Assembly (NCBI GenBank): GCA_014190275.1
Contig: BJGE01000003.1
Location: 10,258-74,257, forward strand
Reading direction: 5' to 3'
Length of the DNA stretch: 64,000 nt
Source of the DNA: Actinomycetes bacterium
GTDB lineage: Bacteria > Actinomycetota > Actinomycetes > S36-B12
Shown: positions 40,799 through 42,562 of the stretch, in pieces
Position numbering within the stretch: position 1 is the stretch's first letter
Layout of the letters: each line of letters opens with the position of its first letter
The notes under the pieces: model-generated
What the model was told of the DNA's origin: nothing
The model's database searches: none
What the model saw: the letters and a program-made list of their open reading frames with translations, nothing else
Made by a program: the position numbers and the translations under genes

Positions 40799-42562
40799 TT
40801 ACCCGCAAACTGCCAACAGCGCCGGCACCGCATCGGCGATGGCTACATCGGTTCGCTCCCCCGTTCGACGATCCTTTACCTCGATGAATCCCTCGACTAG
40901 GCGTTTGCCAACAACCACGATCGTGGGCACGCCGATCAGTTCGGAATCATTGAACTTCACCCCGGGCGAGACCCCGCGGCGGTCGTCATAGAGCACTCGC
41001 AGGCCGGCCCCCTCAAGTTGCCCGGCCAGCGACTCGGCCGCCTCAAAAGGGGTGTCCTCTTTACCGGTCGCGATCAGGTGAATATCGGCCGGAGCCACCT
41101 CGCGCGGCCAGATAAGTCCCTTATCGTCGTGTGATTGCTCGGCAACCGCGGCTACCGCGCGTGACACCCCGATGCCGTAGGAACCCATGGTGACGGTCAC
41201 GAGCTCACCTTTTTCATCGAGAACCTTTAGACCTAAAGCCTGTGCGTACTTGCGCCCGAGTTGGAAGATATGGCCGATCTCAATACCGCGTGCCAGCTCG
41301 AGGCCACGCCCACATTTGGGACAGCTATCACCGTCGAGAATCTCACCCACCTCGATTACGCCATCTGGGATAAAGTCGCGCCCGGCGACTAAGTCATAGA
41401 CGTGCGACCCGGCGGCATCCGCACCGGTTATCCACCGCGTGCCGGTCACCACCCGCGGATCTACCAAGTACTTGATGCCCGACGAATTCGCCAAGCCCAA
41501 AGCCCCCGGGCCGATATAGCCCTTCCGCAAAGTCGGGTATTTGGTGAAGTCCACCTCTTCGAATGGCCGCGGCAACCCCGGCTGCAGCACGGCCTCAAGG
41601 CGCTTCAGATCGACCTCGCGATCACCGGGCAGCCCGATGGCTAAGGCCGTTTCAACACCATCTGGACCTTTAACCATAAAGACGATGTTCTTCAATGTGT
41701 CAGCAGCGGACCAGGGACGATCCGATCGCGCCAAATCAGCGCGCTCATTCGACAGTTCAACAAGGGAGGCAATAGTCGGGGTAGCTGGTGTCTGCTCCGC
41801 GTGGGCTGCCGGCACCGATGAGTAATCAAGTGGGAACGGTGCGGGTGTCACCACCGCCTCCACATTTGCCGCGTAGTCACATGCCGTGCACCGAACGAAG
41901 GTATCCTCGCCGACTTCGGTTGGTGCTAAGAACTCCTCACTAGCCGACCCGCCCATGGCACCGGACATCGCTGACACGATCACGAACTCCATGCCAAGAC
42001 GCGTGAAGGTGTCGATATAGGCGTCACGATGACGCTGTTACTACTTCTCAAGACCTGCTTCATCGACATCGAAGGAGTACGAAACCGTCATGACCACCTC
42101 CCGGCCGCGGAGAATACCGGCGCGCGGGCGTGCCTCGTCACGGAACTTGGTCTGAATTTGGTAGATCACCAAGGGTAAGTCTTTATAGGAGGAGTACTCA
42201 CCCTTGACGAGTAGGGTGAACATCTCCTCGTGCGTGGGCCCCAGTAGGTAGTCGCCGTTACGCCGATCTTGGAGGCGAAACAAGGTGTCGCCGTATTCCG
42301 TCCAGCGGCCGGTTAACTCATACGGCTCACGTGGTAGCAGTGACGGAAAATGCACCTCTTGGAAGCCGGCCCGATCCATCTGCTCGCGAATTATGTTCTC
42401 GACATTACGGTAAACCAAGTAGCCAAGGGGTAGCCACGAGAAAACACCGGGGGCGATTCTGCGCACATAACCGGCCCGGACCAGCAGCCGGTGGCTCGGC
42501 ACCTCAGCATCAGCCGGGTCCTCACGCAGGGTCCGCAAAAACAATGTCGACATGCGCAGCAT
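40799..42562 (-). pseudogene. proS: Prolyl-tRNA synthetase interrupted by tandem in-frame stops (TAG TAA)
   Basis: Track ORFs 42041..42562 (173 aa, the ProRS N-terminus) and 40799..41992 (397 aa, the rest of ProRS) are in the same frame. The minus strand reads ..[55 protein letters not shown].. with the stops at plus 42038..42043. The two parts together make a collinear bacterial-type ProRS of about 570 aa. Confidence 0.85.

Follow-up and report, generated by a model that had tools for sequence, protein, structure and literature searches.

The closest described relatives of the gene studied here are bacterial-type prolyl-tRNA synthetases (ProRSs) with an INS editing domain, such as those of P. 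aeruginosa (5UCM), E. faecalis (2J3L) and S. aureus (5ZNJ). In bacterial-type ProRS, the class II core (PF00587) carries an inserted editing domain (PF04073) and is followed by an anticodon-binding domain (PF03129). The proS gene of the window, by which we mean the whole 64-kb stretch of DNA that was analysed, has the same domain order, and it lies in the canonical neighbourhood of such genes (dxr-rseP-ispG ... proS ... rimP-nusA-infB). It differs from intact bacterial-type ProRS in that three invariant residues of motif 2 are replaced and codons 174–175 are stops; neither the intact motif 2 nor the uninterrupted frame by which membership of this group was judged is found in the window copy.

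Here we show that this lesion is private to one assembly and that its mutational spectrum is unnatural. Most likely it is not a real biological feature, and it is not a new kind of system.

An interrupted proS at its canonical locus

Translation of the minus strand from 42562 to 40799 gives a single frame of 587 codon positions and a terminal TAA, somewhat longer than the roughly 570 codons of the initial annotation, and the only breaks in this frame are codons 174–175 (Table 1). The adjacent in-frame TAG and TAA that had been reported from the letters alone are seen in this translation. In Pfam searches, the N-terminal fragment matches only profile positions 1–70 of the 179 of PF00587, and the C-terminal fragment matches PF04073, PF00587 positions 125–178 (about 54 positions) and PF03129; across the two fragments, all the domains of a bacterial-type ProRS are present and in the right order. 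The earlier placement of the gene near rimP-nusA-infB also holds, with RimP, NusA and IF-2 encoded downstream of proS and with dxr, an M50 protease gene, ispG and a GNAT gene upstream.

Table 1. Features of the interrupted proS gene and its deposited neighbours
Feature	Position	Strand	Details
proS (bacterial-type prolyl-tRNA synthetase, INS editing domain)	40799..42562	−	587 codons, interrupted at codons 174–175
N-terminal fragment ORF	42041..42562	−	173 aa + TAG; deposited as hypothetical protein LBMAG15_02480
C-terminal fragment ORF	40799..41992	−	397 aa from first ATG 41992 (ORF listing)
Tandem in-frame stops	42038..42043	−	TAG (42043–42041) and TAA (42040–42038), replacing Ser174 (TCG) and Tyr175 (TAT)
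Motif-2 damage	42084..42097	−	F156V TTC>GTG (42097, 42095); K159T AAG>ACG (42087); D160V GAT>GTT (42084)
GDX31312.1 (LBMAG15_02460)			HAD hydrolase
GDX31315.1			GNAT
GDX31316.1			IspG

Among public proteins, the closest is P0001, an intact ProRS of 587 aa with 99% identity to the window proS, and the two are separated by F156V, K159T, D160V, S174*, Y175* and one more residue only. Once repaired, the window sequence matches 5UCM with E = 3e-126; the motif 2 pattern RGREF-MKD-YSF is common to both, and the REF-MKD-YSF string occurs in solved ProRS structures, that of the P. aeruginosa enzyme among them.

The deposited C-terminal piece begins at GTG 41977 and is 392 aa long (hypothetical protein LBMAG15_02470, GDX31313.1). 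The initial annotation had seen no Shine–Dalgarno sequence before the ATG at 41992. As regards the fragment as a whole, this needs qualifying: 9 nt before the in-frame GTG at 41977 there is a GGAG, this GTG being the start chosen by the depositors' gene caller, and this GGAG is formed by native Met-Glu codons.

Six transversions within 60 bp

The whole lesion comprises six substitutions in 60 bp (42097, 42095, 42087, 42084, 42042 and 42038), where on the coding strand public contigs read T, C, A, A, C and T/C and the window reads G, G, C, T, A and A. All six are transversions, with no indels. Five codons are altered, two of them to stops, and none of the changes is synonymous. The stop-making substitutions on the coding strand are C>A at 42042 and T>A at 42038. 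An ancestral TCG TAC converted by two C>A changes had been proposed for this site; TCG and its C>A change stand, whereas the second codon is TAT (TAC in one contig) and the second change is T>A.

Motif 2 (codons 154–164) reads REFVMKDSYSF in its intact form, and the window copy is altered at F156, K159 and D160, which confirms the F-to-V, K-to-T and D-to-V replacements recognized earlier. The residues involved are close to invariant: in a protein-seeded scan of genome contigs, F156, K159, D160 and Y175 were each found in 88 of 88, and S174 in 86 of 88, orthologous loci of Actinomycetota among the matches listed, which are relatives of up to 75% identity.

Public contigs were tiled across 60.7 kb of the window, and a position was scored as private if it differed from every covering contig at a depth of at least 2. 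There were 32 private positions in the 60.7 kb, 6 of them inside the 60-bp proS patch. At the rate of private substitution elsewhere in the window (4.7e-4 per bp), six in 60 bp have a Poisson probability of about 7e-13 per stretch and about 4e-8 for the whole window, far too low for a chance cluster. The spectrum of the lesion is also out of line with ordinary polymorphism, which in the same region comprises 70 transitions and 36 transversions, against 6 of 6 transversions in the lesion (P = 0.0015). Two or more stops would arise among six random errors with a probability of about 0.017, a figure that has to be read with the finding having been picked precisely for containing stops.

The other private changes in the window are mostly synonymous third-position or intergenic changes. 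In a RimO-like gene, private C>A changes at 13027 and 13029 alter neighbouring codons, giving Glu-Ser in the window in place of the public Ala-Arg; they align with non-conserved positions of T. maritima RimO, which says little. An intergenic private micro-cluster at 50033–50037 combines a substitution with an indel.

Template switching or gene conversion was considered as a source of the six bases and rejected. No donor was found in the window, where the longest matches that include a derived base are 8–11-mers, distant and at chance level (128 kb). Counted by eye at the local TCATGA quasi-palindrome, flanking pairs number 4 of 7 before the motif-2 changes and 3 of 7 after them; pairing is not improved by these changes. 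Mutagenesis of the DGR type was likewise rejected, the ancestral bases T, C, A, A, C and T not being all adenines on either strand.

Intact copies in near-identical assemblies

Fifteen distinct public contigs cover the site at 99.35–99.89% identity to the window. They come from independent runs or assemblies (Logan DRR3333xx, DRR583086, ERR147899xx and ERR14822391; ENA ERZ272803xx), and all 15 have the ancestral base at all six positions. Codons 174–175 are TCG TAT in all but one of these contigs, and TCG TAC in the remaining one. The initial annotation had argued that an intact segment in related genomes, together with the lack of an alternative ProRS in this strain, would make a true pseudogene untenable; the intact segment is what these 15 contigs contain.

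Outside the cluster, the similarity is close. Over 10,744 bp, contig L002 and the window disagree at 12 sites, the 6 of the cluster included, with 0 differences in the remainder of proS (1,764 bp); contig L001 has 10 differences beyond the cluster, 9 of them synonymous. Twenty contigs encode the repaired protein (P0121), one of them a 65-kb ENA contig. We distinguished 11 proS haplotypes, up to 15 nt from the window, and those encoding P0121 differ from one another only synonymously, which indicates strong selection on proS. A DNA pattern that left the stop positions open (N) had 0 matches in genome contigs and 0 in JGI metagenomes, and a looser pattern gave three JGI matches, all with TAT at codon 175. 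The best explanation of these data is that proS in the living population is a normal, intact and strongly constrained single gene, and that no function attaches to the altered site.

The assembly behind the sequence

Both fragments and their neighbours match NCBI proteins exactly (GDX31312, GDX31313, GDX31315, GDX31316 and LBMAG15_02480), on one contig of 80,506 bp. The N-terminal fragment matches LBMAG15_02480 with 100% identity over 100% coverage, the altered motif 2 and the same end included. The lesion is therefore present in the 2019 public annotation of a Lake Biwa MAG, with the locus-tag prefix LBMAG15, and since both fragments are found there, the window sequence has not been tampered with.

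The LBMAGs are 57 MAGs from Lake Biwa (Okazaki et al., bioRxiv 10.1101/655167). Their pipeline used two MiSeq 2x300 runs of the cellular fraction, PRINSEQ quality trimming and metaSPAdes 3.10.1 with k up to 127, in single-sample assemblies and co-assemblies, followed by binning with MetaBAT (bioRxiv 10.1101/655167). We infer that the window belongs to LBMAG_Actinobacteria_hypo.bin8_acSTL (Nanopelagicales, family S36-B12), because this bin fits the 58–59% GC of the window and the labels of its closest homologues. The bin is the fifteenth entry of Table S3, with 2.25 Mb, 58.9% GC, 94.4% completeness and 0.1% contamination (bioRxiv 10.1101/655167). The presumed bin genome is small (about 2.4 Mb), and the MAG has 128 contigs besides the one that bears proS. 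The abundance given for the presumed bin is 1.6–2.4 FPKM in four hypolimnion samples of 9–10 million reads each (bioRxiv 10.1101/655167), which by rough arithmetic corresponds to a depth of about 4–6x per sample and about 15–25x pooled.

A stop at the same codon in a sister lineage

One further assembly has an interrupted proS. In a 40-kb ENA contig from a sister lineage with about 91% protein identity (L094; ERZ19568601, GROS21-1), the gene is split into 174 + 397 aa by one TAA, again at the Tyr175 codon, while motif 2 is intact. This contig was noticed because its fragment length matched that of the window. Its TAA is also private: TAT stands at this codon in contig L095 from the same project, 99.94% identical, and in two JGI contigs. 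Between L094 and L095 there are 8 differences, all transversions, with C>A, T>A and C>A as the clearly private L094 alleles; singletons of the transversion type are thus found in these assemblies, at a few per 10 kb.

A random nonsense substitution falls in codon 175 about 1% of the time. The sister lineage has hundreds of contigs in the collection, among which several nonsense singletons are expected. The shared TAA codon is an unexplained coincidence that hints at something site-specific. Because private TAA codons occur here in two lineages about 9% apart at the protein level, in assemblies from unrelated projects, it is conceivable that freshwater S36-B12/acSTL-type actinobacteria have a true hot spot at the Tyr175 codon, or that a stop there is tolerated or bypassed. 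We consider this very improbable; if it were true, the haplotype of LBMAG15 would be no error but a genuine allele, either null or regulated.

Explanations for the lesion

We favour, with a probability of about 0.7, a local error of the consensus in a MAG assembled with metaSPAdes from MiSeq reads at modest coverage; the defect would then belong to the assembly and not to the organism. Erroneous sequence would have supplied the consensus for about 60 bp, leaving six wrong bases in an otherwise intact proS; its source may have been a single poor read, PCR duplicates or a low-coverage path wrongly resolved, and the gene caller would then have cut proS into two 'hypothetical proteins'. An artefact was one of four options between which the initial annotation had made no choice, and it is now favoured because the lesion is private, its six changes in 60 bp are all transversions and none is synonymous, and the gene otherwise matches the intact sister copies. 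Further error-like private changes on the same contig (13027/13029 and 50033–50037) lend it support. With k up to 127 at 15–25x, we estimate that stretches with very few reads are to be expected somewhere in a 2.2-Mb bin. Against a consensus error, two stops among six random errors are improbable, the copying signature of sequence-specific errors is at chance level, an erroneous de Bruijn path at the estimated pooled depth normally loses to the correct one, the reads behind the assembly were quality-trimmed, and the sister-lineage assembly has its private TAA at the same codon.

The lesion resembles consensus-error split genes in MAGs in being a singleton, in having intact counterparts elsewhere in the population, in producing two 'hypothetical proteins' and in being accompanied by other micro-clusters. 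It differs from the usual MAG artefacts, which are frameshifts or chimeric joins, whereas a burst of six substitutions in 60 bp without an indel is unusual for short-read assembly. Both the technical origin of the lesion and the exact route by which it arose are what we infer from this pattern.

As the main rival reading, the six substitutions could be real: an extremely recent null allele that arose in a Lake Biwa clone in one complex mutational step (an error-prone repair patch, for instance) and that was tolerated through another ProRS or was sampled from non-viable cells or relic DNA. We hold this to be unlikely, while noting that the lesion stands in the deposited consensus of an 80-kb contig from a 94%-complete, 0.1%-contaminated MAG, that assemblers normally take the majority path, that the contig matches other assemblies at 99.8–99.9% or better outside the cluster, and that the private TAA at the Tyr175 codon of L094 could mean a mutational hot spot. 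Yet such an allele is absent from every other assembly (15 contigs at the DNA level, with the repaired protein on 20), purifying selection on proS in that population is near-absolute, and a second ProRS was not found within the 64-kb window of what is a small genome. Nor does any known natural mutational process testable here account for six transversions within 60 bp in the absence of an indel or a donor. The gene is without further signs of decay: outside the 60-bp patch, proS is identical to intact sister copies, so it is not decaying, and the lesion, if real, would be one very recent event. Of the marks by which pseudogenes are recognized, neither a lesion shared with relatives nor relaxed selection elsewhere in the gene was found. 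An essential gene with in-frame stops at a syntenic locus does recall the housekeeping pseudogenes of decaying genomes, but 86% of the window lies in ORFs of at least 200 aa, no relative has the lesion and there are no extra changes in proS; a search of the 64-kb window for other split genes, as a sign of decay, found none.

Also very improbable is a functional arrangement, in which two polypeptides (residues 1–173 and a re-initiated product of 392 or 397 aa) assemble, or the stops are read through or recoded. Some re-initiation is conceivable, given the GGAG before the in-frame GTG at 41977, and L094 has a stop at the same codon. Expression as two polypeptides had, however, already been called unlikely, and the anatomy of the break agrees: it falls between motif 2 and motif 3, so that the two halves divide the class II core and a split enzyme is implausible, and residues 174–190 (start at ATG 41992) or 174–195 (start at GTG 41977) would be dropped. 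No relative of this lineage is split. A conserved split, complete modules and a dedicated start signal, which characterize split aminoacyl-tRNA synthetases, are not seen here, and the sole start signal is a chance GGAG. With three invariant motif-2 residues destroyed, even a full-length product would be predicted to be inactive. As for the stops, among the window's 45 long ORFs 13 end in TAG and 9 in TAA; because these codons terminate 22 other ORFs, neither is reassigned and recoding is excluded. Read-through of two consecutive different stops would be negligible, no tRNA gene was found in the window, and the ORFs and the tRNA check together gave no sign of stop reassignment or programmed read-through. 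Very improbable too, and effectively excluded among the options first proposed, is a deliberately engineered or in-silico edited knock-out that combines tandem stops with active-site mutations. The lesion does have the look of one, being length-neutral, with a double stop, altered invariant residues of a catalytic motif and no silent change. Its host, however, is an uncultured freshwater actinobacterium known from metagenomes only, the identical sequence and both fragments were already in the 2019 annotation of the lake MAG, and F>V, K>T and D>V are not a designer's choice. A planted or edited window was ruled out by the identity of the 173-aa fragment with NCBI LBMAG15_02480.

Consequences for the public record

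Taken as a consensus error, the lesion carries little weight as biology, the population having an ordinary, intact proS. Its interest lies in data quality, as a flagged error in the public record: a high-scored MAG (94% complete, 0.1% contaminated) contains a burst of six wrong-looking bases through which an essential enzyme is annotated as two 'hypothetical proteins'. From records of this kind, pseudogenisation, enzyme splitting or recoding may be wrongly claimed, and marker-gene estimates of completeness may come out too low. If instead the haplotype were real, it would be an unusual case of an essential gene lost in a wild population through one complex mutational event, and the question of a back-up ProRS would follow.

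Comparison with sequence-specific sequencing errors

Illumina sequence-specific errors are runs of consecutive miscalls whose onset is fixed in position relative to a preceding inverted repeat or GGC (Nakamura et al. 2011, NAR 39:e90, PMC3141275). Their triggers, an inverted repeat of more than 8 bp or a GGC, precede the first miscall, the GGC by no more than about 10 nt; the miscalls copy the preceding 1–2 bases, and the errors occur in one read direction (PMC3141275). The surroundings of the lesion are suggestive of these triggers in that, on the plus strand, a GGC and the inverted repeat GCGTCA-TCG-TGACGC (42021–42035) stand just before the first error at 42038. It differs in that the stem of this repeat, at 6 bp, is shorter than the >8 bp on which that study relied, and the GGC lies about 16 nt from the first error. 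The copy-of-preceding-base signature is seen at 3 of the 6 changed bases against 3.0 expected by chance, in a base-by-base check. Sequence-specific errors, moreover, usually affect one read direction and should be outvoted. In L094, a GGC and the palindrome CATCGCGATG are found in the same place.

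A sister-lineage proS with a stop at the same codon

The contig L094, from a sister lineage (~91% protein identity), also carries an interrupted proS, which a single TAA breaks into pieces of 174 and 397 aa. This TAA occupies the Tyr175 codon, the same codon as a stop in the window, and is private to L094. The codon reads TAT in the near-identical contig L095 and in two JGI contigs, and motif 2 of the L094 gene is undamaged. L094 and L095 come from the same ENA project and differ at 8 sites over 13,194 aligned bp, all 8 of them transversions; L094 has the private alleles C>A, T>A and C>A. 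Such a spectrum suggests consensus errors of the transversion type in these assemblies.

In the tblastn alignment, the proS of another actinobacterial MAG (L017, JBEBBR010000086.1, match 2810–4588) contains one in-frame stop. Searching with the N-terminal ProRS fragment of the window returned many N-terminal fragments of ~286–291 aa (for example, P0216, P0228, P0287 and P0301), on ENA and NCBI contigs of 70 kb to 1 Mb; these could come from a frameshift that arises repeatedly at a single site in long-read assemblies, or from genes truncated where a contig ends.

Sequence around the tandem stops

In coding sense, the tandem stops of the window are directly followed by an inverted repeat, with GCC/GGC at 42020–42022; the homologous place in L094 holds the palindrome CATCGCGATG. 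Further downstream, GTG 41977, rather than the first ATG (41992), was taken as the start of the C-terminal proS fragment by the gene caller of the depositors; the GGAG that the native ATG-GAG codons create 9 nt upstream of this GTG presumably led to this choice.

Features in the window and in L094
Feature	Position	Strand	Details
Split proS	L094:5431–7194		ENA ERZ19568601, GROS21-1 scaffold_621; stop at L094:5953–5955
Inverted repeat	window 42021–42035		GCGTCA-TCG-TGACGC (coding sense); perfect 6-bp stem
RimO-like radical-SAM gene	window 12653–14116	−	private changes at 13027 and 13029
Private micro-cluster	window 50033–50037		intergenic: ORF end 49985, ORF start 50051
CN_hydrolase gene	window 61239–62075	+	private differences at 61370–61373 and 61865

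Other private differences in the window

In the RimO-like gene, two C>A changes 2 bp apart, at which all four covering contigs differ from the window, convert the public Ala363-Arg364 (GCG CGC) to Glu-Ser (GAG AGC); these residues align with non-conserved residues of T. maritima RimO. The intergenic micro-cluster comprises two substitutions and a 1-bp indel relative to 6/6 covering contigs. Within the CN_hydrolase gene (depth 7–10), the differences assessed, at 61373 and 61865, are both synonymous, and in some contigs position 61370 involves an indel or a substitution.
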